Shown in pieces: positions 908 through 48,300 of a stretch of 64,000 nucleotides of DNA. Source of the DNA: a virus. The position numbers were made by a program, and so were the translations under genes. Positions within the stretch are counted from its first letter, which is position 1; every line of letters begins with the position of its first letter. The notes below the pieces were generated by a model. That model had not been told where the DNA came from, did no database searches, and saw only the letters and a list, made by a program, of their open reading frames with translations. The stretch covers positions 34,576-98,575 of IMG/VR virus record IMGVR_UViG_3300010391_000273. One strand, 5' to 3'.

Positions 908-3478
908 TTAATTGACCCTCGTTCGTACATTGTTGGATCCTAGGACATAACGCTCTTGGGTTTTTGGCTTCATCCAAGGTTTTGGACCCGAAAATTCAGT
1001 ACTTGAACGTCTTTCGTCTGAAGCATGGGACATGACATAGTAAGCAAGAGCTACAACCGCATGGTCGTCTTTGTGGTCTGCCATAAATTCTGGTCGCTTT
1101 TGATCATAGCGCATTTGGGGAAGGGTCCTAACTAGATAGGGACATCCCTGGTGGCCGTAAGCAAAGAACTGGATTCGTGGGAGGTTTTCTCCAGCTTCTT
1201 CGGCTAGGACATTATGGATAGCTGATGCAAAGACATCCCGTTTGTTAATGGAGCATTCCATAGGGATACCATTAATCTCATAAATCTCTTTAATGGTACG
1301 GATATCAGCTGTTGTGTTGATGTCCATGGAAGGATCACAATAAGTGATAGCTACTTTGAAAACTCCAAGGCGGATGTCTTCGTCTTTGATATCTTCTGCA
1401 ACTTGGGTGGCGGTGGTCTTGTACCAAATCTTCTCGTTGAAGACGATGTGCCTGTTTCCCAGGTGGGCTATCCATAGAACTACAGTAGGATCAGGGAACC
1501 AACCTGAATCGATAGCTCGATAGACAGTGGCATATTTAAGTATTTTGGGTAGGTCGAGTTCAGGAGTAACATGGTAGGGCTTTCCTTCTAAAGTAGGTTT
1601 AAAGTCGAATAGAGCGTTTTCCATCGAGAATTCACCATCTACCCAAGCCTTTCTGACATGGGCTGGGAGGCCGGAGAATCTCTTTTTATACTCTATGGGG
1701 AGATAAGGGTTGTCTTCCAGGTTGGCTTTAATGGCGTACCAATCAGCTGGATTGTAGTCACGATCTTCCTCTGGGTCAACAGTTTTGTCTATAAAGTATT
1801 CTTGAATCTTCTGAGCTGACATTCCCATAGGATTTGTTAGGGCTCTAACGAGGGCACCACAATTCATGTTAACAGGGGCTCGGACTGAAGAGGCCAGTTT
1901 TCTAAAGTGTTCCCATTCAAAGGTTGAGACCTCATCAAACAGGGCCAGATAGAACTCACCTCCGAGAAGGTTTAGTACGTCTTCTTCCGTATTACAGTGG
2001 GAGAAGAAACCTGCTGAACCATTAGAATAGGTTAAAATATGTTTAGTTTGATTGTAGGAGGCCCCTAGAAGTTTAGCCTCCCTAGGGATGGCATAAAGGT
2101 GGGTATTATGAGTTGGGATAGACGTGTATCCAATAAGGTATTGATGTGAAGGATGTTCTACTGCAATACACTTACAAATAGTGTCCTCGACTTGTTCACA
2201 CCCTATGATATAATGATTGCTTGTCGTTAATCTAGTAATTCTAGTTGATTTATAAGTCTCTAGATTTTTTAGTTTTCTAGGAAGTCTAAAAAGAGGTAAA
2301 GAACTTGTCCATTCAACTTTATAGGCTAATTGACAAACTGACCCATTTAACTTTGGTTGGTATTCTGTAATATTTGGTTTAAATCCAAGAGAAGACACTA
2401 ATATAAGAACTTGATAAGCAAGGTTTTTATTCGAATTATAGAAACCAATTAATCCATCTTTTCTTCCATGTCCATCTGTATCTAAAAGTCCTTGTAATAG
2501 AGCAAGCCTATTGTCATAACTACTTATAAGATAAGCTGCTGGAATATGCTTTTTATTTAAAAGCCCTTGAAGACGAAGTTGTTTTTGTAACCTTAGAATA
2601 CCATAACCATATTGATTTGATGGTTGTTTTCTAACTGTGTAACCAAGTTCCACAACGTGTTCAAATATCTCTGGGTCATTTGACGTGATTGCTCCACAGT
2701 CTGAAGAACCGTCACCAAGCCATACCCCTAGTACATAAGGATTTATAGGAAGGGGTTGATTATTCTGTGTTTGCCATGGTTTTGCAATAGGAATAGAGTG
2801 ATTGGCTCGTAAACCATCTTCAACTTTTAATGTATTAAAAATCTCTTGAGTAGTTCGTATTTTTGGTGATGAGTTAATATAGGTTCTGGATTGGGCACCA
2901 GACTGTATTCTCTGTTGGCCCGACCTTTCTCGATGATTTGAGGTGACCCACAAATGACCAGCACTTACAATAAAACTTTCTTTGTTGTCAAACGTTATTT
3001 TGTAGGTTCCTTGTACATCAACTTTAGGAACCGACATACCAATAATTGTCGTGGGAGATCCATCTGGAGCAAAAACTTGATCGCCAATTTCTAAGGTACC
3101 CATGGTTTTCATACCATTTGGTGTAGGAATTAGGGTGTCCAAACTACAGGCTTTTTCAAGCTCGGGGAAAGTCCTTCTTAGAATGACATACTTATAATCT
3201 GGAATAGAGAGAGCCCTAATATGAGCATCCCACCTACCAGTTGTGGACTTGGCAGAACCTCGACCACCATAGAAAAGGACGTTTTCTTCGGTACGTTGGT
3301 GATATTCTACACCTTTTTCGGTGGGAACATAAAGAACCTCATTACCAACGATAACACTACCAACATTACACCATTCACAATTAATAGATGGAGGAATAAA
3401 CTTATGCCTACCATCTGGAGAAGGCTTACAAATTTTAACTAGGGGGATTGTAGTAGGATAATATAGCTCGTTAGACAA
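908..3478 (-). CDS. terL: terminase large subunit, intein-containing
   Basis: Walker A GGRGSAKS, RRTFPEL, Walker B ALFDE, coupling motif TNP, nuclease AIDSGWFPDPT, C-terminal DDHAVVALAY. Confidence 0.95.
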   Translation of the reverse strand: MSNELYYPTTIPLVKICKPSPDGRHKFIPPSINCEWCNVGSVIVGNEVLYVPTEKGVEYHQRTEENVLFYGGRGSAKSTTGRWDAHIRALSIPDYKYVILRRTFPELEKACSLDTLIPTPNGMKTMGTLEIGDQVFAPDGSPTTIIGMSVPKVDVQGTYKITFDNKESFIVSAGHLWVTSNHRERSGQQRIQSGAQSRTYINSSPKIRTTQEIFNTLKVEDGLRANHSIPIAKPWQTQNNQPLPINPYVLGVWLGDGSSDCGAITSNDPEIFEHVVELGYTVRKQPSNQYGYGILRLQKQLRLQGLLNKKHIPAAYLISSYDNRLALLQGLLDTDGHGRKDGLIGFYNSNKNLAYQVLILVSSLGFKPNITEYQPKLNGSVCQLAYKVEWTSSLPLFRLPRKLKNLETYKSTRITRLTTSNHYIIGCEQVEDTICKCIAVEHPSHQYLIGYTSIPTHNTHLYAIPREAKLLGASYNQTKHILTYSNGSAGFFSHCNTEEDVLNLLGGEFYLALFDEVSTFEWEHFRKLASSVRAPVNMNCGALVRALTNPMGMSAQKIQEYFIDKTVDPEEDRDYNPADWYAIKANLEDNPYLPIEYKKRFSGLPAHVRKAWVDGEFSMENALFDFKPTLEGKPYHVTPELDLPKILKYATVYRAIDSGWFPDPTVVLWIAHLGNRHIVFNEKIWYKTTATQVAEDIKDEDIRLGVFKVAITYCDPSMDINTTADIRTIKEIYEINGIPMECSINKRDVFASAIHNVLAEEAGENLPRIQFFAYGHQGCPYLVRTLPQMRYDQKRPEFMADHKDDHAVVALAYYVMSHASDERRSSTEFSGPKPWMKPKTQERYVLGSNNVRTRVN
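2105..3151 (-). mobile_element. class-3 intein with LAGLIDADG homing endonuclease, in terL
   Basis: Starts Ala (ACSLDTLIPTPNG), block B GHLW, block F CKCIAV, ends IPTHN|T. LAGLIDADG motifs PYVLGVWLGDG and LLQGLLDTDG. Splicing restores RRTFPELEK-THLY. Confidence 0.92.
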
Positions 3479-11225: not shown

Positions 11226-11297
11226 GCGGGGATAGGATGACGTGTTATCCATCGGGCCGCGCCCGAGAGGCTGGTGTGACACCCAGTTCCCCGCACA
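11226..11297 (+). ncRNA. tRNA-like cloverleaf RNA, copy 1 (non-canonical D and T loops)
   Basis: 7-bp stem GCGGGGA/TCCCCGC, arms GGAT/ATCC, TCGGG/CCCGA, GCTGG/CCAGT; homologous to 17859..17930 with compensatory changes. Confidence 0.75.
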
Positions 11298-14863: not shown

Positions 14864-14928
14864 TTTTAAATACTCCCAATAAGTTACAAACTTATAGTCT
14901 ACTAGATAATAAAGAAGATTGTCAACAA

Positions 14929-15195
14929 GATTAAACTGTTGAAGATCAACAAACCGCCATTCGGACGGGGCTGCAATGCCCCCGACTCCACCATAACAAA
15001 TTTAATGAGTATGGGGTCGACTTAGTTTCGACGGGTAGCTTAGTAGTTGATTGGAGGTTTAGTCGTAAGACCCACGAAACGGGTCAACCGATAGTCAACG
15101 ACTATCAAATGGCAGCGTAAGCTGCAATCGACTTATAAGGTCTAATCACCTTTAGGTCCGGGTTTTGTGGGTTGTCCTCGGAACAGAATCAACCC
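14929..15195 (+). ncRNA. ssrA: circularly permuted (two-piece) tmRNA
   Basis: 3' acceptor piece ends CGACTCC-A-CCA at 14993; 19-nt spacer; then 5' piece GGGGTCGACTTAGTTTCGAC at 15013 (G3:U70). Tag frame ATAGTC-AAC GAC TAT CAA ATG GCA GCG TAA; terminal pseudoknot. Confidence 0.9.
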
Positions 15196-15216
15196 TCTTT
15201 CAAACAAGTTTTAAGT

Positions 15217-15338
15217 TTGTGGTGTCCAGACTCCTTAGAGGAAGAGGAGACACTCCTCACTTAAGCGGCTTAGGCTAGCAGGCTGACAGACGCTGGATGA
15301 GAGACCCCTTTGGCGTAATAGCACACTAGGCACCACAA
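15217..15338 (+). ncRNA. structured RNA directly upstream of the TerD-domain gene
   Basis: Closing stem TTGTGGTGTCCAG/CTAGGCACCACAA enclosing hairpins GAGGAG/CTCCTC and CTAGC/GCTGG. Confidence 0.6.
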
Positions 15339-15352
15339 TCAATAAGGTTAGA

Positions 15353-17092
15353 GTGTATATGATGAATCCAACTCTAGCTACGATTGACCTGTTCAATGTG
15401 GTAGTTGCCTCTGAGACTGGCTTGAACCTAAGCCATGCTCCCTATGGGTTTGTGACCAACTTCCAGCCCACTCAGGAGCAGATTGAGGTTCTGAGGGAAC
15501 GTTTCAAGGCTCTCTCCATCATCACCCTGTTTTCGGTGAGGGAGCGGGAAACCGCAAGCCTTGACCAACTCCTTCTCAAGCAGCTGCTCCACTATGTCGA
15601 GGTATATGGGTTGGAGAGCCCAGGATTGTTCAATCTTGAGGTGATAGGTGGGAGGGTTCAGACCATCTCCTATGTCAAAGCCATCTCGATAGGTGAGCTA
15701 GACAAAAAGATAACTGAACTACTCTATGCCAATCGCCCCATAGATGATATCGCCCCTGTGCTTGAGATCATCTCACACTACAAGATCCTCTATGACTTTA
15801 ACAAGATCAAGAATAACGAGCTAAAGGTCGCTCTCTTTGATATCTGTAGGGATACATTTGTATCTGGAGATGATGCAGTTCGTTATATCTGCTACAAAGC
15901 TACTAAGAGTACACTCCTTATCAAGAGCAAAGATGTCATTCAAAAGGTAGCAGTCAGTCAGCCTTCTGATGAGTTTCTATCCAAGCATGTAAAGCCATTA
16001 GCGCAGGTATTCAATCGACATAAGAGGATCATCCTCGCCTGTAAGAACAAGCTGAATCGTGGAGTGATTAACCGGATCTCAAAGCTGAGTAAAAAGGCTC
16101 ATGTTCCTATTCATGAGGCAGTTTCCAAGAGATTCATCTCATCAGCAGTTAACGGAAAGGTTCCAACCAATCTTCTCGATACTGAGGCCATCACCCTTCG
16201 TGACAAGCTAAAGTATCTAAACTTGATCGAGTATAGGCTCCTTGAGCTCCCCTTTGATACGTTCCTGATCAGGAATGGAAAGGTGTGGGCTGAGACAGAG
16301 CGAGCCATTCTCGATCCATCTAAGTTGACCACTCTTCGGGAACTTATTCTCAAGTCAATTTGCAAAGATTTGAGTGAACTGAGGGGTAAGTCCATCCTCC
16401 TCGATCCTGCCGTTGATTATGGCTTGCCTACCTCCCGGAAACAAGTTGTAGGACGACTTCCCTTCGGGACACGGGTTGAGGTTGATCCTCATGATGAGGT
16501 ACTTTCAGCTGGAATCTACTGGCATAACGACTCATGGGAGGGTCAATCAATCGATCTAGACCTCTCCGCCATAAGCTCAAGTGGTGGTCGTACTGGGTGG
16601 GGACATTACTCAAGCTTCACATCTAAAGATATCGTGTTCTCTGGAGACATCACGAGTGCTCCTGAGGGCGCTATGGAATTCATGATGGTTCATCCAAATG
16701 AGACCAATCGCTATGGTCTCATGGTGAATGTCTACAAGGGTCCAGATGAGTGTCCTATGGAGATTGTGGTGGGATCTTCTAACAAAAAGGATTGGCTTGA
16801 TCTTGCTATCATTCGTGAGAAGATTGTTCTCAAGTCTAAGCAGAGCATCATTGGCTTCCTAAAGGACGATACCTTTGTCGTGTACACTGGGAGACTCAGC
16901 AATTCAAGGGTCTCGGCTGGAAAGCATCCAGTTATCGACAAGGGCTTAGGCAATCTGTGGACGATCAAGACACTTTTGGATGAGTGTAAGGTCAAGTATG
17001 ATTTTGTTCCCAAGGCGGGATTAGTCTACGACTTCGATCTGACCTATCAAAACTTCTCGCTTGACAAGCTAGAAATCCTCTTGGGCGTCTAA
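15353..17092 (+). CDS. large protein with helical N-terminus and C-terminal TerD-like domain
   Basis: GIYW...IDLDLSA...GW...IVFSGDITSAPEGAMEF...VNVY is a TerD-family signature. Confidence 0.75.
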   Translation: MYMMNPTLATIDLFNVVVASETGLNLSHAPYGFVTNFQPTQEQIEVLRERFKALSIITLFSVRERETASLDQLLLKQLLHYVEVYGLESPGLFNLEVIGGRVQTISYVKAISIGELDKKITELLYANRPIDDIAPVLEIISHYKILYDFNKIKNNELKVALFDICRDTFVSGDDAVRYICYKATKSTLLIKSKDVIQKVAVSQPSDEFLSKHVKPLAQVFNRHKRIILACKNKLNRGVINRISKLSKKAHVPIHEAVSKRFISSAVNGKVPTNLLDTEAITLRDKLKYLNLIEYRLLELPFDTFLIRNGKVWAETERAILDPSKLTTLRELILKSICKDLSELRGKSILLDPAVDYGLPTSRKQVVGRLPFGTRVEVDPHDEVLSAGIYWHNDSWEGQSIDLDLSAISSSGGRTGWGHYSSFTSKDIVFSGDITSAPEGAMEFMMVHPNETNRYGLMVNVYKGPDECPMEIVVGSSNKKDWLDLAIIREKIVLKSKQSIIGFLKDDTFVVYTGRLSNSRVSAGKHPVIDKGLGNLWTIKTLLDECKVKYDFVPKAGLVYDFDLTYQNFSLDKLEILLGV

Positions 17093-17101
17093 TTAGCTCT
17101 T

Positions 17102-17284
17102 GAAGCCAATAGAGTTCCTTAAAATTTAATGCAAATTACTCTACGCTTCTAATTAAAAATATGGTTTAACTGGTCTGTATGAGCAAATAGGGTTCCTTAA
17201 ACTTGGTTATTACCCTACGCCCTTAACCTTTTCTCGACAAACAGAGTTCCTTAAAATTTTATACAAATTACTCTGCGTCGGGAA
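17102..17284 (+). repeat. three tandem structured RNA repeats
   Basis: Units at 17102, 17181 and 17231: stem-MAA-YAGRGT-TCCTTAAA...ATT-ACYCTR-C-stem, with compensatory changes. Confidence 0.85.
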
Positions 17285-17329: not shown

Positions 17330-17854
17330 TTGTTTATTTGTGATGTATGTTCGAAGCCTGTCGGCCCTGGGGTCAAGCCCCTTATGCTCATCCTTCCGAC
17401 TGATATGAGGCAGACTTCCTATCATAATGTGATAGTCGATCCCGAGACTGAGGAGAAGTTTACCAAGGTCTCAAGTGGAAGTGAGTTCATCATCGAGTAT
17501 AAAACGTGTGGTGCGTGTGCTGGAGTGGAAGCGAAGATTCCAACCAAGCCCAACCATACAGGCCACATCAACATCATGAGAGGTATGCAAGCTCATGCTA
17601 AGCTGTGTAAGAAGAAGTTTGACGAGTGTGGTCATTGTCAGGAGAATGTGGAGTTTTTCAAGTCGATTCCACTCGTGACCATAAATTTGGGTCTAACCGA
17701 TCCTATGACAAAGCCTATGAAGGTTAGCATGGCCTACACAGTCGTGGAGAACATGCTCAGAAGGTCTAAGCACACCTCCATGCGGTCCAAGGCAGACTTT
17801 AACGTATCTTACCCCATTCTCAAACAGTATGAGGAACGTGGAGGAAGTCTCTAA
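17330..17854 (+). CDS. Zn-finger hypothetical protein
   Basis: AGGAG SD; CDVC, CGAC, CGHC. Confidence 0.65.
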   Translation: MFICDVCSKPVGPGVKPLMLILPTDMRQTSYHNVIVDPETEEKFTKVSSGSEFIIEYKTCGACAGVEAKIPTKPNHTGHINIMRGMQAHAKLCKKKFDECGHCQENVEFFKSIPLVTINLGLTDPMTKPMKVSMAYTVVENMLRRSKHTSMRSKADFNVSYPILKQYEERGGSL

Positions 17855-17858
17855 AATT

Positions 17859-17930
17859 TCGGGGATAGGATGACGTGTTATCCAACAGGTCGCAACTGTT
17901 AGGCCGGTTTCACACCCGGCTCCCCGAACA
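17859..17930 (+). ncRNA. tRNA-like cloverleaf RNA, copy 2
   Basis: TCGGGGA/TCCCCGA, D-arm GGATGACGTGTTATCC identical to copy 1, AACAG/CTGTT with loop GTCGCAA, GCCGG/CCGGC. Confidence 0.75.
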
Positions 17931-24219: not shown

Positions 24220-25107
24220 ATGAGTTACATGCACATAGACCTACTTTACAAGTGCCCAGACATCTTAGCTTTTAAACAACTCTTTGCCTTAGAGAAGATT
24301 CATGGGACGAGTGCTCACCTTAGACTTAAGCTTGGGGAGATTACCTACTTCTCAGGTGGGGAAAGTCTAGGTAAGTTTAGAGCCTTGTTTGATGATGACA
24401 AGCTTCATGAGGCCTTTAAGACTAAGTTTGGTGAGGCCGATGTAGTTACCATCTATGGTGAGGCCTACGGAGGTAAACAACAGGGCATGAGCCATACCTA
24501 TGGGCCTGACCTGAAGTTTGTGGCCTTCGAGGTCAACCTGAACGAGATGTGGCTGAGTGTTCCTCAAGCTCACGACTTCTGTACGAGTTTTGGAATTGAG
24601 TTTGTAAGTTATAATCTTGTAAGCTCAGACTTAGAGACTCTTAATGCTGAGCGTGATTTGCCTTCTGTGCAAGCCGTGAGAAACGGAATTACTGAGCCTA
24701 AGCTCCGAGAAGGCATCGTTCTGAGACCTCCCTTCGAATGTAAGACTAATAGGGGTAGGCTCATCTCTAAGCATAAGGGTGAGGCTTTTGACGAGCGCGA
24801 TAAGCCTGTTCACCCTGTCGATCCAGCAAAAGCTGATGAACAGGTTAAAGCCGAAGCCATCGCCTTTGAATGGGTAACACCTAATAGGCTTGAACATGTA
24901 ATCGACCATATGGTTGCCATGCGGGAGGATAAAGAGGTTGGTATGGAAGATGCAACAGCCCTTATTGCTGATATGGTTGAAGACATCACCCGAGAAGGTG
25001 CAGGTGAGGTTGAAATGACTCCCAAACTCAATAGGAAGGCCATAGGAGCCCAAACAGTGAAGCTTCTTAAGGCTAGACTCCAAGCAAGACTAGAACAAGC
25101 ATCATGA
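24220..25107 (+). CDS. RNA ligase, Rnl2 family
   Basis: EKIHGTS (motif I), YGEAYGG, FVAFEV, REGIVLR, ISKHK. Confidence 0.88.
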   Translation: MSYMHIDLLYKCPDILAFKQLFALEKIHGTSAHLRLKLGEITYFSGGESLGKFRALFDDDKLHEAFKTKFGEADVVTIYGEAYGGKQQGMSHTYGPDLKFVAFEVNLNEMWLSVPQAHDFCTSFGIEFVSYNLVSSDLETLNAERDLPSVQAVRNGITEPKLREGIVLRPPFECKTNRGRLISKHKGEAFDERDKPVHPVDPAKADEQVKAEAIAFEWVTPNRLEHVIDHMVAMREDKEVGMEDATALIADMVEDITREGAGEVEMTPKLNRKAIGAQTVKLLKARLQARLEQAS

Positions 25108-26249
25108 CTTTAGATCCTGAGCTATTCGATGTCCATGAGAAAGACGGCCTTAGACTTATCATTCCAGCTAGGAATGGGTCTGTAGCCAACGCCCCATGGT
25201 CTAAAGAAACTGTTATGTATCGGTCTAGAGTGGAAACTTTAGAAGGATTAGTTGTTTCTCAAGGCTTTGGTAAGTTCTTCAATTTGGCGACTGGGCCTGA
25301 TGGTCTAAGGGTCGAGCTTGATGACTTGATCAAGGCAACTGAGAAAAGTGATGCTATAGCAACCCTTAAGATCGATGGCTCACTCCTGATTAGGTCGGTT
25401 TATAATGGCAAGATCATGCTCAGGACTAGGGGCAGCTTTGGGTATGAGTTCTTAGATAACGCCGATGAGATCGACCTCTTTAGAGCTAAGTATCCACTTG
25501 TCTTTGATCCTAGCTTATTTGTGGGTTATAGTCTCCTATTTGAGTGGGTAAGCCCGAGGAACGTAATAGTTCTTAAGTATCCTGAGCCTAACATCATCCT
25601 AATTGGGGGTGTGCAGCATACTCCAGACTTACCATACCTGACGTTTGCCCATAGTCAGTTGGACTTCATTGCAAAACGTTTAAATGTGCCGCTTGTTACC
25701 TCCTTTGATTTGACTTCTGAGGGCTGGGCTGAACTTCATGCAAACTTGGAGTCTAACCAAGAGATTGAGGGTTATGTTATCAGGCTTCATAATGAGCAAG
25801 TCTTAGTCAAGGTGAAGTGTGCCCCATATTTGACTAAGCATGGGCTTAAATCGACCTTGACAACCGAGAAACTCATCGACATGTGGTTCCAGCAGGGATC
25901 ACCTGATTATCAAGCTTTTTGTGCAACTTTCCTTGCAAGTTTTGACGAGGAAACCTTTATGTGGACCTTGGGGGCTATCTCAAGTCTCTTTGATGGGATT
26001 AGAACCCTAACCAAGATCATGAACCATATGGGCGGTAAAGTCGAGGTTAGGAAGAATTGGCCTAGAAAAGAAGCTGCCCTAGCTGGGCTAGCCGAGTACG
26101 GTCAAACTAAGAGATTCTCGGCTTACATGAACTTGTGGGAAGGTAAACAGCCTAGCTTTGATTTGCTTAAATCGCTTCTGTTGCAAAATACCAAGCAGGT
26201 CGAAATTGAAATGTTCAAGGCTACAGGCCCAGCTATTTTAGGAGATTAA
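25104..26249 (+). CDS. RNA ligase, T4 Rnl1 family
   Basis: KFFN, TLKIDGSL, RTRGS, LLFEWVSPRN.IV, EGYVI, VKVK...Y. Confidence 0.88.
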   Translation: MTLDPELFDVHEKDGLRLIIPARNGSVANAPWSKETVMYRSRVETLEGLVVSQGFGKFFNLATGPDGLRVELDDLIKATEKSDAIATLKIDGSLLIRSVYNGKIMLRTRGSFGYEFLDNADEIDLFRAKYPLVFDPSLFVGYSLLFEWVSPRNVIVLKYPEPNIILIGGVQHTPDLPYLTFAHSQLDFIAKRLNVPLVTSFDLTSEGWAELHANLESNQEIEGYVIRLHNEQVLVKVKCAPYLTKHGLKSTLTTEKLIDMWFQQGSPDYQAFCATFLASFDEETFMWTLGAISSLFDGIRTLTKIMNHMGGKVEVRKNWPRKEAALAGLAEYGQTKRFSAYMNLWEGKQPSFDLLKSLLLQNTKQVEIEMFKATGPAILGD

Positions 26250-30568: not shown

Positions 30569-30664
30569 GGACCTGTAGCTCAATTGGTAGAGCGGTAGGC
30601 TTATATCCTACGTATGCCCTAGATTGGGGCGCGGTTGGGGGTTCGAGTCCCTCTGGGTCCACCA
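30569..30664 (+). tRNA. tRNA with TAT anticodon (Ile, AUA) and a long variable arm
   Basis: GGACCTG/TGGGTCC-A-CCA, D-arm GCTC/GAGC, GTAGG-CTTATAT-CCTAC, 25-nt V region, GGGGG-TTCGAGT-CCCTC. Confidence 0.9.
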
Positions 30665-45855: not shown

Positions 45856-46348
45856 GACCTTACCCATCAAAATAACAGATACATTAGAAGCGAGATTCTG
45901 GAAGAAAGTAGACAAGAAGGAGAAGAATAGTTGTTGGCTTTGGTTAGGTGCCCGACTTCCAAGTGGTTATGGCCGCTTATTTCTATTTAAAAAGAATGGT
46001 ATCCCTTATTCAAGAGGTGCTCACAGAATAGCCTACACTCTTTTAGTTGGTGACATTCCAAACGGACTTTTAGTTTGTCATAAATGTGATAACCCTCCAT
46101 GTTGTAATCCAGATCACCTATTTCTTGGAACATATAAAACTAACGGCCAAGATATGGTACTTAAAAAGAGAAATTTTACCCCAGCTTGCAAAGGTGAGGC
46201 AAATGGTAAGTCCAAGTTAACAAATCAATTAATCCAAAAAATTAGATTTTCAAAACTACCTAGTAGACAATTAGCTAAAGAACTTGGTATTTGTAAGTCC
46301 TCTATTAATTATGTGAGATCAAAGGTATTATGGAAACACATCCCTTAA
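45848..46348 (+). CDS. HNH homing endonuclease
   Basis: RFWKKV, CWLW.G, GYG, AHR.AY, VCHKCDNPPCCNPDHL.LGT...N..DM, C-terminal HTH. Confidence 0.92.
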   Translation: MSETLPIKITDTLEARFWKKVDKKEKNSCWLWLGARLPSGYGRLFLFKKNGIPYSRGAHRIAYTLLVGDIPNGLLVCHKCDNPPCCNPDHLFLGTYKTNGQDMVLKKRNFTPACKGEANGKSKLTNQLIQKIRFSKLPSRQLAKELGICKSSINYVRSKVLWKHIP

Positions 46349-48300
46349 GATTTGTTACTTTATCCCGTACGCAGACAGATTGGACCTGTCAGCGAAAACG
46401 CTACTGGGCTTATGAATATTCCGGAAGAGGTTTAACAAAAGCAAGTACTAGTCAAGCTTTATTTGTTGGCAGTTCCTTACATGATTGTTTAGCTGTTATT
46501 GGTTCACGATACATGAATAGTATTCCAATAAATATTGATGAGATTGCAGAGACTGCCTTTAAGCAAGTATTCAAGTCAATTTTGGAAGCCACTCCAAACC
46601 CTGAGTTACCAGAATCAATAAATTATGCTAACGAACAAGGTACATTAGTAGAAGGTATAATACGTGGTTTTGAAAAGCATGTGTGGCCCAAACTCCTAGC
46701 TAAATACCCCACGATCGTAGGGGTTGAACAAGAAGCCACCTATTCTATGTCAGATGAGGTTAAGTTCATAGCTAGACCCGATCTGATCATGGTCGATCCT
46801 GAGGGGGGTTGGCATTATATTGAGTTTAAGTCAACGAGCTCCAAAAAGGAAGAGTGGATCAACTCATGGAACACAGCTGTTCAACTCCATTCGAGTGTGA
46901 AGGCCGTCGAACAAACTTTTGGAATCATGCCTGAGGATATCACGATTGTGGGTATGTATAAAAGCTACGTGAGCTATGGCCGGCAAAATAGCCCATTTTG
47001 CTTGAGCCCTAATACTAAAGTTCTTACAAAAGACATGAGATGGGTACCAATTAGCAGCTTAAGTAAGGGTGACAAAATAGCCGGTTTTGATGAATTCCCA
47101 GAGAGCAGGTTTAATAAGAAGCCTAATAGATATTGGAGAAATGCCGAGGTTTTAAATATTGAAAAGATAAACCTCCCATCTTTAAAACTCACATTTAGTG
47201 ATGGAACAACTGTAACTTGTTCAAAAGATCACATGTGGCTTACGGCTCAGTATAGAACAGGGCCAGCTGCTAAATCCACTACTTGGACACGGGCTGAGCA
47301 CATGCGGCCACAAAGTATTTACCCGACAACTGCAAGTAGAGTTTTAAAACTTCTTCCATTATGGGAACCAGGAATAACTTTCAATGACGGTTATTTACGT
47401 GGTGCTTATGAAAGTGAGGGCTCTTTAGTCCATATAAACTCTAAAAGGGATATACCTTACGTAGCCATTAGTTTCTCACAAAAACCAGGGAAAATGTTAA
47501 CTAGAGTAAAGGATCTTACCAAGGAATTAGGAATAAAAGTTCATGGACCATATGATCCATCACATACCCACTCAGCAGGGACCCTTCTCATAAATAATCG
47601 AGCAGATGTACTTCATTTTCTAGGCAGAGTCCGACCAGAAAGATTTCTTGAAAAACTAGATCTAGATAAAATAGGAACTTTAAGATCTCAATTTGATCCG
47701 GTCATTCTACTTTCAGTCGAAGATATAGGAAATAAAGATCTCATAATGTTAGAATCATCTACAAAAACACTGATTGCTGAAGGTCTAGCTTCTCATAATT
47801 GCTATGCTTATAAAAAGGCTGGTAATCCACCCTTCACCCAGGACCTCATCCAATATGAATATAAAGCTGGTTATAAGAAGTGTCCTGTGTGGGAGATGGA
47901 AGGTGGATGTAAAGCTTGGATAGACTCTATGCCCGAAGCCATCCTTGCTAACCAGTTTCCCATGACTGCCCCAATCTTCATAAATGAAGACATGATCGAA
48001 GGGTTCTTTAGGCAAAGACTTATGAGAGAGCAATCGATCGCAGAAGCCCTCCAAGTTGCTGACGGGGAGGAACCATGTTCAGACATTATGGATGAAATCT
48101 TTCCACAGAAGTTTGAAGCGTGTAGCCCTGCATATGGGTATGGATGTGAGTTCAAAAAATTATGTTTTGGATTTGTTCAAGACCCCACGACTGAAGGCTT
48201 TACTCTTAGAGTTCCCCATTTAGATGCTGAACGAGCCCAGATGGGTCTAGATAAAGAGCCCATTGTAGAACCGACATTAGACCCAATTGAGGAGGTCTAA
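46330..48300 (+). CDS. PD-(D/E)XK Cas4-like exonuclease, intein-containing
   Basis: C.RKRYW.YE, GSSLH, VEQE, RPDL, IEFKS, QLH, C-terminal C...C...C. Confidence 0.85.
   Translation: METHPLRFVTLSRTQTDWTCQRKRYWAYEYSGRGLTKASTSQALFVGSSLHDCLAVIGSRYMNSIPINIDEIAETAFKQVFKSILEATPNPELPESINYANEQGTLVEGIIRGFEKHVWPKLLAKYPTIVGVEQEATYSMSDEVKFIARPDLIMVDPEGGWHYIEFKSTSSKKEEWINSWNTAVQLHSSVKAVEQTFGIMPEDITIVGMYKSYVSYGRQNSPFCLSPNTKVLTKDMRWVPISSLSKGDKIAGFDEFPESRFNKKPNRYWRNAEVLNIEKINLPSLKLTFSDGTTVTCSKDHMWLTAQYRTGPAAKSTTWTRAEHMRPQSIYPTTASRVLKLLPLWEPGITFNDGYLRGAYESEGSLVHINSKRDIPYVAISFSQKPGKMLTRVKDLTKELGIKVHGPYDPSHTHSAGTLLINNRADVLHFLGRVRPERFLEKLDLDKIGTLRSQFDPVILLSVEDIGNKDLIMLESSTKTLIAEGLASHNCYAYKKAGNPPFTQDLIQYEYKAGYKKCPVWEMEGGCKAWIDSMPEAILANQFPMTAPIFINEDMIEGFFRQRLMREQSIAEALQVADGEEPCSDIMDEIFPQKFEACSPAYGYGCEFKKLCFGFVQDPTTEGFTLRVPHLDAERAQMGLDKEPIVEPTLDPIEEV
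46999..47799 (+). mobile_element. intein in the exonuclease (single LAGLIDADG-like motif)
   Basis: CLSPNTKVLT start, CSKDHMWL block B, GYLRGAYESEG, ends GLASHN|C. Confidence 0.9.

Follow-up and report, generated by a model that had tools for sequence, protein, structure and literature searches.

Tandem hairpin RNAs of a widespread phage family are encoded beside the gene for a protein with a TerD-like fold

Several described systems join structured RNAs to a protein gene. Ro60 (Rsr) has its Y RNA and YrlA partners, and the type III toxin-antitoxin systems ToxIN and CptIN have RNA repeat arrays that are processed into single units; ToxI-type repeats are near-identical direct repeats of 34-36 nt upstream of a small endoribonuclease. 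The GOLLD, skipping-rope and T4 species 1 and 2 RNAs are enigmatic RNAs of phage tRNA islands, and to our knowledge none of them has a known partner. UG27 reverse-transcriptase systems carry variable arrays of non-coding RNA, with units of about 135-167 nt that contain a pseudoknot, and need the reverse transcriptase together with two accessory proteins (bioRxiv 10.64898/2026.09.22.753630). Here we describe an array of three hairpins located directly after the gene for an unannotated protein in a 64,000-nt stretch of viral DNA, bases 34576-98575 of the IMG/VR record IMGVR_UViG_3300010391_000273 (98.6 kb, rated complete); this stretch is referred to below as the window. The three hairpins are members of a widespread family of structured phage RNAs, new to Rfam 15 and to the searched literature, and comparison of many loci establishes their structure, their conservation and their genomic coupling to the protein gene. 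No description of the RNA or of the protein turned up in a search of Rfam 15 and of the literature outside subscription journals. A reading of the window made from the sequence only had proposed a small-RNA family tied to this protein as a candidate ribonucleoprotein (RNP), and comparative genomics lends strong support to this core idea.

Structure and covariation of the hairpin units

The sequence-only reading had placed three hairpins of a defined anatomy after an open reading frame (ORF) of 579 codons, and all three were found there (Table 1). In each, the outer helix leads to a bulge (CAA or AAA) that faces a single C, and then to a 5-bp inner helix extended by a U-A pair and a loop of 20-24 nt that starts with TCCTTAAA. 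The units lie within the 237-nt spacer 3' of the gene and are 83-89% alike over 23-38 nt, with both helices differing among units. Unit 1 folded at -10.7 kcal/mol (z -2.95 against shuffles) and unit 3 at -16.4 kcal/mol (z -4.67; none of 200 shuffles was as good), whereas unit 2, taken alone, folded no better than its shuffles (z -0.24). As a plain word, GTTCCTTAAA had one further match in the genome, inside a coding sequence and without a hairpin.

DNA flanking homologues of the protein gene was drawn from viral, genome and metagenome collections; the set of related loci excludes the closest homologues, P0002-P0039, which lie on long contigs. In all of the first five viral loci, where the protein is 44-48% identical, the hairpin came straight after the stop codon, in two to four copies. 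A structural pattern search of the fetched loci yielded about 100 units, on the gene strand except for a few oddly long chance matches. When 41 units were aligned (alignment A2), all 10 modelled pairs showed compensatory changes, with 121 double-change cells, in agreement with the covariation that had been read from the three window copies. The covariation score was 0.87, whereas shuffles scored 0.20 and slid partners about 0.1, and RNAalifold independently arrived at the same fold and at the invariant U-A pair.

Because the 41 units had been preselected by pairing, a covariance model, R1, was built from the aligned units and 304 kb were searched with it. This search returned 113 matches in 53 sources, in which 97.6% of 1084 cells were paired and 378 were double-change cells. 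In the complete 98.6-kb phage genome, R1 matched exactly the three window units, with 50.9 bits (E 1.2e-11), 29.3 bits (E 3.7e-5) and 54.6 bits (E 9.1e-13) for units 1, 2 and 3, respectively. Among the 113 units, 28 cells were G.U, and on the opposite strand these would turn into A.C mismatches; thus, the fold is specific to the transcribed strand. The G.U cells bear on the view that the units act as DNA, that is, as single-strand hairpins or protein-binding sites (an origin, a recombination site or a hairpin promoter) recognised by the protein. Functional DNA hairpins also gain compensatory changes, and initiators commonly have tandem sites close to the gene for the protein that binds them, but G.U is tolerated here only on the transcribed strand. 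Moreover, no replication or recombination genes are conserved nearby, and the phage has no reverse transcriptase, as judged from a search for RVT_1 that found no match in the complete 98.6-kb genome and did find matches in control genomes. We regard DNA sites as very improbable.

Across 122 units, the base of the hairpin is close to constant. The loop starts with UUCCUU in 119 units and ends with A in 121, the single base on the 3' strand is C in 120, a G-C pair closes the inner helix in 110 and GC/GC ends the outer helix in 97. The most frequent bulges are AAA (68), AUA (22), ACA (13) and UAA (9). The apical part, in turn, is variable, measures 20-45 nt in nearly all units and in some of them forms small hairpins of its own. 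Within arrays, the units are of position-specific types, the order of which is kept between related phages. One type has UUGGAA within its loop, complementary to the invariant UUCC, another has GCAAA, and a third carries a GC-rich apical hairpin that is capped by UUCG and that itself covaries.

The sequence-only reading had not recognised the repeat as a described family, and no family of Rfam 15 matched the units, whether at E<=5 in the window region, at the gathering score in 15 loci, or at E<=1 in seven further loci with 19 units. No match to Y_RNA or YrlA was found over the units in Rfam. With ARAGORN and Rfam, tRNAs and transfer-messenger RNAs (tmRNAs) were called beside units but never over them, and no tRNA-like module was found in the units.

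Coupling of the units to one protein gene in tRNA islands

All of the R1 matches are beside the gene, 112 of the 113 on its strand. Among loci with at least 70 nt of sequence after the gene, 39 of 45 carry units. A distant branch of the family, at 25-28% protein identity, has five units per locus; from one related phage to another, both the order of these units and their apical loops are conserved. Coming from the RNA side, a 14-base pattern found 80 loci in IMG/VR, four of which passed R1 and 76 of which, mostly chance matches, failed; in all four the gene is adjacent to the units and on the same strand, with the units either upstream or downstream. A stricter two-part pattern gave two IMG/VR loci, one of them new (L179, see below). 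A lack of the repeats at homologous genes was one of the outcomes that the sequence-only reading had named as refuting it, and both the 39 of 45 loci and the four of four loci found from the RNA side favour its proposal.

A blastn search of GenBank phages with the locus found no match, and tblastn of 50,697 GenBank phages detected distant homologues of the protein in three, the Synechococcus phages S-CRM01 and S-CBWM1 and the gut phage Phass-1, all of which have units. Whole-genome scans of the window phage (G000) and five other gene-bearing genomes revealed units in all six, with every match at the gene, close to it or within a tRNA array. Conversely, no unit was found at E<=0.1 in five phages that are rich in tRNAs and lack the gene (S-PM2, T4, KVP40, phiCbK and T5). 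None of the other ORFs in the neighbourhood of the window locus is conserved in related loci. Thus, the module consists of the protein gene and the RNAs.

Two units of S-CRM01 (L061), at 2574-2703, lie under the annotated coding sequence g173c (2617-2763), which runs on the opposite strand; g173c is therefore probably miscalled. In S-CBWM1, the 78-aa gp23 directly follows gp22 and may be a similar case.

The distance from the stop codon to the first unit, which is on the same strand, is 0-45 nt in most loci. This arrangement would suit cis-acting elements of the gene transcript, such as 3' or 5' stabilisers, punctuation for RNase processing between the mRNA and adjacent tRNAs, or operators for autoregulation by the protein. 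Also in line with such a role, an intrinsic terminator follows the second unit in L005, and neither a promoter nor a terminator was found between gene and units in the window. However, units also occur upstream of the gene (in L097, L121, L124, S-CRM01 and S-CBWM1), and ORFs or tRNAs intervene between gene and units over 1.4 kb and 10 kb in Phass-1 and over 2.5 kb in S-CBWM1. The apical loops, conserved and specific to position, would be needless for simple stabilisers, and there are no U-tracts 3' of the hairpins. A purely cis-acting role seems to us quite improbable. As for the narrower idea that the units are only terminators, it does not fit the window array, in which no intrinsic terminator or promoter-like site was found at the units, the loops measure 20-24 nt and no T-run follows the hairpins.

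tRNAs were found in the fetched flanks of 36 of 60 loci, almost always on the same strand. The units are spaced 4-15 nt apart, and the next tRNA can be as close as 7 nt (L025) or 15 nt (L015). In Phass-1, three units, 10 kb from the gene, sit between tRNA genes and 3-30 nt from their neighbours, and in S-CBWM1 one unit is within a tRNA array. A promoter of the form TTGACA-N17-TATATT precedes two units in L009. A permuted tmRNA directly follows the unit array in L008 (4853-5219), L027, L029, L032 and L036, and is found upstream of the gene in the window; in three of the five loci with the tmRNA after the array, the start of the tmRNA called by ARAGORN overlaps the 3' strand of the last unit by 16-20 nt. 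The same islands can hold other phage RNAs within 1-3 kb of the gene or the hairpin units: GOLLD RNA (187-192 bits) at 5669-6131 of L009 and 5433-5894 of L026, and skipping-rope RNA (51 bits) at 135-226 of L009. The tRNA-like packing, together with the Phass-1 units that lie amid tRNA genes far from the protein gene, suggests that the units are most likely made within tRNA-type transcripts and freed as discrete small RNAs. The island context and the L009 promoter also argue against a purely cis-acting role, against terminators and against DNA sites; for the last of these, the interleaving of units with tRNA genes, on the tRNA strand and at tRNA-like spacing, is a further difficulty.

The partner protein and the layout of the window

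The protein belongs to a large family that has no Pfam or PHROG counterpart. Among the candidates, 876 homologues were found at E<=1e-3, of about 575 aa and without names or Pfam domains; at 50% identity and E<=1e-3 the family comprises 1467 clusters, almost all of 570-640 aa. The AlphaFold2 model has a mean confidence score (pLDDT) of 79 for the whole protein and of 84 for the N-terminal domain (residues 1-345) when modelled alone.

The C-terminal domain had been read as a TerD domain, an assignment that holds for the fold and not for the sequence. With VIA-align, residues 374-524 matched TerD of K. pneumoniae (2kxt) at Z 9.1 over 140 residues, with a root-mean-square deviation of 3.5, and 2qz7 at Z 7.7. 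Foldseek gave a probability of 1.0 to 3ibz, 2kxt and 2qz7, with template modelling (TM) scores of 0.49-0.53 by target. In contrast, none of 24 family members matched Pfam TerD (PF02342) at E<=1, phmmer found no TerD among PDB sequences, and the profile search was empty. Thus, the domain is TerD-like by fold only. Two motifs in it, DLDLS (399-403) and SGD..A..GAMEF (428-441), are invariant or nearly so, with D399, D401, G429, D430 and E440 strictly kept; they may correspond to the calcium sites of TerD. There was also a weak match to NCBIfam RING_SCO0854 (E 6.8e-6) at residues 365-453.

Residues 1-345 form a basic, alpha-rich domain with a median isoelectric point of 9.2, as compared to 5.3 for the C-terminal part. 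It is rich in invariant Arg, Lys, His and Asn residues, among them R175, K189, R220, K229, K245 and R305. Since the domain is basic and has many invariant basic and polar residues, we infer that it may bind the unit RNAs. Neither the PDB nor the ESM Atlas gave a convincing match to the N-terminal domain; the best one in the PDB had Z 6.4 and covers a helical sub-bundle of about 70 residues. Rows for botulinum toxin in the fold lists are noise (TM about 0.1). A HEPN-like Rx5H motif (K/R242...H248) was considered and dropped, as position 242 is K in the window protein, one member has Y at 248 and there was no HEPN fold match.

The sequence-only reading had further envisaged a Ro/Y-like RNP that works with the RNA-repair enzymes of the phage. 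A diverged Ro60/TROVE orthologue with partners akin to Y RNA would fit a loose likeness of the RNAs, in which the 5' end pairs with the 3' end, a 3-nt bulge in the helix faces a single C and the large loop contains pyrimidines. Genes for the RNA ligases Rnl1 and Rnl2 are indeed present in the window (Table 1). However, neither Pfam TROVE nor vWA was detected at E<=1 in 24 members, nor was there a HEAT signal, and the C-terminal domain is TerD-like rather than vWA. Ro60 did not appear among the Foldseek and VIA matches listed for the whole protein or for the N-terminal domain, although absence from these lists is not proof. The RNAs, as noted, match neither Y_RNA nor YrlA, and the two ligase genes, at a distance of 7 kb, are not conserved in the vicinity of the module. 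We find such an orthology scarcely credible.

Upstream of the gene, a 122-nt leader RNA with a closed multibranch fold had also been proposed. Its minimum free energy of -42.1 kcal/mol corresponds to z -1.87, and 10 of 200 shuffles folded as well. The segment had no Rfam match at E<=5 and no similarity in 53 related loci, and the closest relatives have ORFs directly upstream of the gene, which leaves the leader unsupported. The tmRNA that had been noted beside the locus is present, as a permuted, two-piece gene; it is context and lies outside the conserved module. The start of the partner gene was set at an ATG, giving 577 aa; the ORF of 579 aa begins at the GTG at 15353.

Immediately after the array lies an ORF for a 174-aa Cys-rich protein, which had no Pfam or PHROG match and is not conserved beside the module elsewhere. 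Just 3' of it is one of two copies of a 72-nt cloverleaf-like RNA. The two copies share an identical long stretch resembling a D-arm, show compensatory changes in the other two arms and each fold better than shuffles (z -3.3); neither was called by ARAGORN or by the Rfam tRNA model. Other genes of the phage encode a terminase, a PolA-UDG fusion, the Rnl1 and Rnl2 ligases and amidoligases. The large terminase and a PD-(D/E)XK nuclease each contain a LAGLIDADG domain, and these look like intein or homing-endonuclease insertions. In the Rfam alignment, a tRNA-Ile(UAU) gene has an insertion of about 21 nt 3' of the anticodon arm.

Table 1. Positions of the module and of other features in the window
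Feature	Position	Strand	Remarks
Large terminase	908-3478	-	LAGLIDADG domain
Cloverleaf-like RNA, first copy	11226-11297	+	72 nt
Permuted (two-piece) tmRNA gene	14888-15198	+	Rfam tmRNA_permuted 69 bits, alpha_tmRNA 55.4 bits, both above gathering
Predicted leader fold	15217-15338	+	Minimum free energy only; unsupported as a conserved RNA
Partner-protein gene (P0001)	15359-17092	+	ATG 15359, 577 aa; ORF 15353-17092 from GTG
TerD-like beta-sandwich domain	16478-16930	+	Residues 374-524; fold matches; motifs DLDLS, SGD..A..GAMEF
Hairpin unit 1	17102-17149	+	GAAGC / CAA / TAGAG(T) / loop TCCTTAAAATTTAATGCAAATT / (A)CTCTA / C / GCTTC
Hairpin unit 2	17180-17223	+	Weakest copy; short 20-nt loop, A.C mismatch in outer helix
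Hairpin unit 3	17231-17284	+	8-bp outer helix TTCTCGAC/GTCGGGAA, AAA bulge, CAGAG(T)/(A)CTCTG
174-aa Cys-rich ORF	17330-17854	+	Directly after array; CxxC...CxxC motifs
Cloverleaf-like RNA, second copy	17859-17930	+	72 nt
Rnl1 and Rnl2 genes	24220-26249		RNA ligases
tRNA-Ile(UAU) gene	30569-30664	+	Insertion of about 21 nt
PD-(D/E)XK nuclease	46330-48300	+	LAGLIDADG domain

A candidate ribonucleoprotein among described systems

On the pattern of conservation and on genomic context, we lean, with somewhat better than even confidence, towards a module of two parts, the protein and a set of small RNAs that are constant at the base and vary at the top, which together most likely form an RNP. The three hairpins would be genes for structured RNAs of about 45-75 nt that belong to a large phage-specific family. 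In the constant base of these RNAs, the outer helix ends in GC and is followed by an A-N-A bulge that faces one C; next come a 5-bp helix with a closing G-C pair, the invariant U-A pair and UCCUU. The RNAs would be co-transcribed with the protein gene or with neighbouring tRNA and tmRNA genes and probably be cut free in the same processing as the flanking tRNAs. The basic N-terminal domain most likely recognises the constant bulged base. In the resulting family of RNPs, the variable loops or the invariant UCCUU may then engage a further target, possibly among the translation or RNA components that the phages themselves supply, such as tRNAs and the tmRNA. Transcription as discrete RNAs, binding by the protein and the nature of the target are the inferred steps of this proposal.

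Several observations weigh against an RNP of this kind. Six homologous loci (L038, L046-48, L055 and L056) have no unit in the sequence at hand. L179 has two units together with tRNAs and no gene within 9.9 kb upstream; its contig ends 390 nt further on. The N-terminal domain showed no recognisable RNA-binding fold in searches with Foldseek, VIA-wide and the ESM Atlas, and TerD domains are known as calcium-binding stress proteins, not as RNA binders. Finally, conservation is far stronger in the invariants of the RNA than in the protein, a pattern that would also suit a host target, rather than the phage protein, as the main partner of the RNAs.

The last point leads to an alternative in which the units are stand-alone decoy or sponge RNAs directed against a universally conserved component of the host, the protein being only functionally linked to them. 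Such RNAs could mimic a ribosomal or tRNA element and titrate a host nuclease or other enzyme, or could pair with AAGGA-type sequences. UUCCUU is invariant in nearly all units while the protein diverges to 25% identity, and it is kept across phages of cyanobacteria, phages of hosts with permuted tmRNA and a gut phage that uses code 15; the presence of units inside tRNA arrays would also suit decoys. The six letters UCCUUA at the start of the loop are also those of the 3' end of 16S rRNA, and the stem-closing G followed by UUC resembles the T-arm of tRNA. However, decoys would leave the strict co-occurrence with one protein family unexplained, the loop has 20-45 nt in nearly all units, unlike the 7-nt T or anticodon loop, and no tRNA or rRNA model matches the units. 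We consider stand-alone decoys unlikely.

A bolder form of the RNP proposal, which we put forward only tentatively, is a new class of phage RNP, in which a protein with a TerD fold and an orphan basic domain is loaded with a set of modular adapter RNAs. These RNAs, alike in their constant bulged base and in the invariant UCCUU, would be expressed and processed in the manner of tRNAs and would act on the translation apparatus. The adapters might mimic the 3' end of 16S rRNA or a tRNA arm, or guide the protein to tRNA or tmRNA, and might thereby keep phage translation running against host defences directed at tRNAs or ribosomes.

What stands apart from these proposals is an RNA family of unusually clean covariation, tied to one large unannotated protein family (1467 clusters). 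Carriers are available in culture (S-CRM01 with Synechococcus LC16 as host, S-CBWM1 with CBW1002), so that the function of the RNAs and of the protein is directly testable. Should the two form an RNP that acts on translation or on host defence directed at tRNAs, this would be a new type of phage counter-measure, and TerD-like domains would gain their first role linked to nucleic acids. At the minimum, the analysis provides a new RNA family model and corrected annotations, as for g173c in S-CRM01.

The closest precedents in logic are Ro60/Y RNA, the type III toxin-antitoxin arrays and the UG27 arrays, each of which differs from the module in a defining feature that was tested. With Ro60 and its Y or YrlA RNAs, the module shares small structured RNAs encoded beside the protein gene, with paired ends, a bulged conserved helix and a large variable loop, in phages near genes of the RNA-repair or tRNA type. 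It differs in lacking a TROVE or vWA signal and in having the TerD-like C-terminal domain. The polarity of the bulge is reversed, with 3 nt on the 5' strand and the C on the 3' strand, and the units, of 45-75 nt, have no tRNA-like domain and no Rfam match to Y or YrlA. As in ToxIN and CptIN, a tandem array of RNA repeats adjoins the gene of the presumed binding protein. Here, however, the units vary in sequence, keep only their structure and are mostly downstream; the partner, of 577 aa, has another fold and no match to ToxN/AbiEii-type families; and the context is that of tRNA islands in phages of the lytic type.

On the side of the protein, the C-terminal beta sandwich matches TerD structures, and the predicted whole fold resembles the C-terminal 560 aa of the MXAN_6230/SCO0854 RING family (NF041916; Atlas TM 0.60 over 467 residues). 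The phage protein differs from both in that it has no Pfam TerD match and no RING domain and forms a phage-specific family. We know of no link between Ter proteins and RNA. On the side of the RNA, the genes for the GOLLD, skipping-rope and T4 species 1 and 2 RNAs likewise lie amid those for phage tRNAs, and GOLLD and skipping-rope RNAs even share islands with the module (L009 and L026), but their structures are unrelated and they have no dedicated gene for a partner protein. The UG27 systems differ in the motifs of their units and in their reverse transcriptase, in place of which there is here one unrelated partner protein. Like them, the hairpin units form tandem arrays in phages, diverse in sequence and conserved in structure, in which units are gained and lost between relatives and short conserved motifs in an asymmetric internal loop accompany a variable central part.

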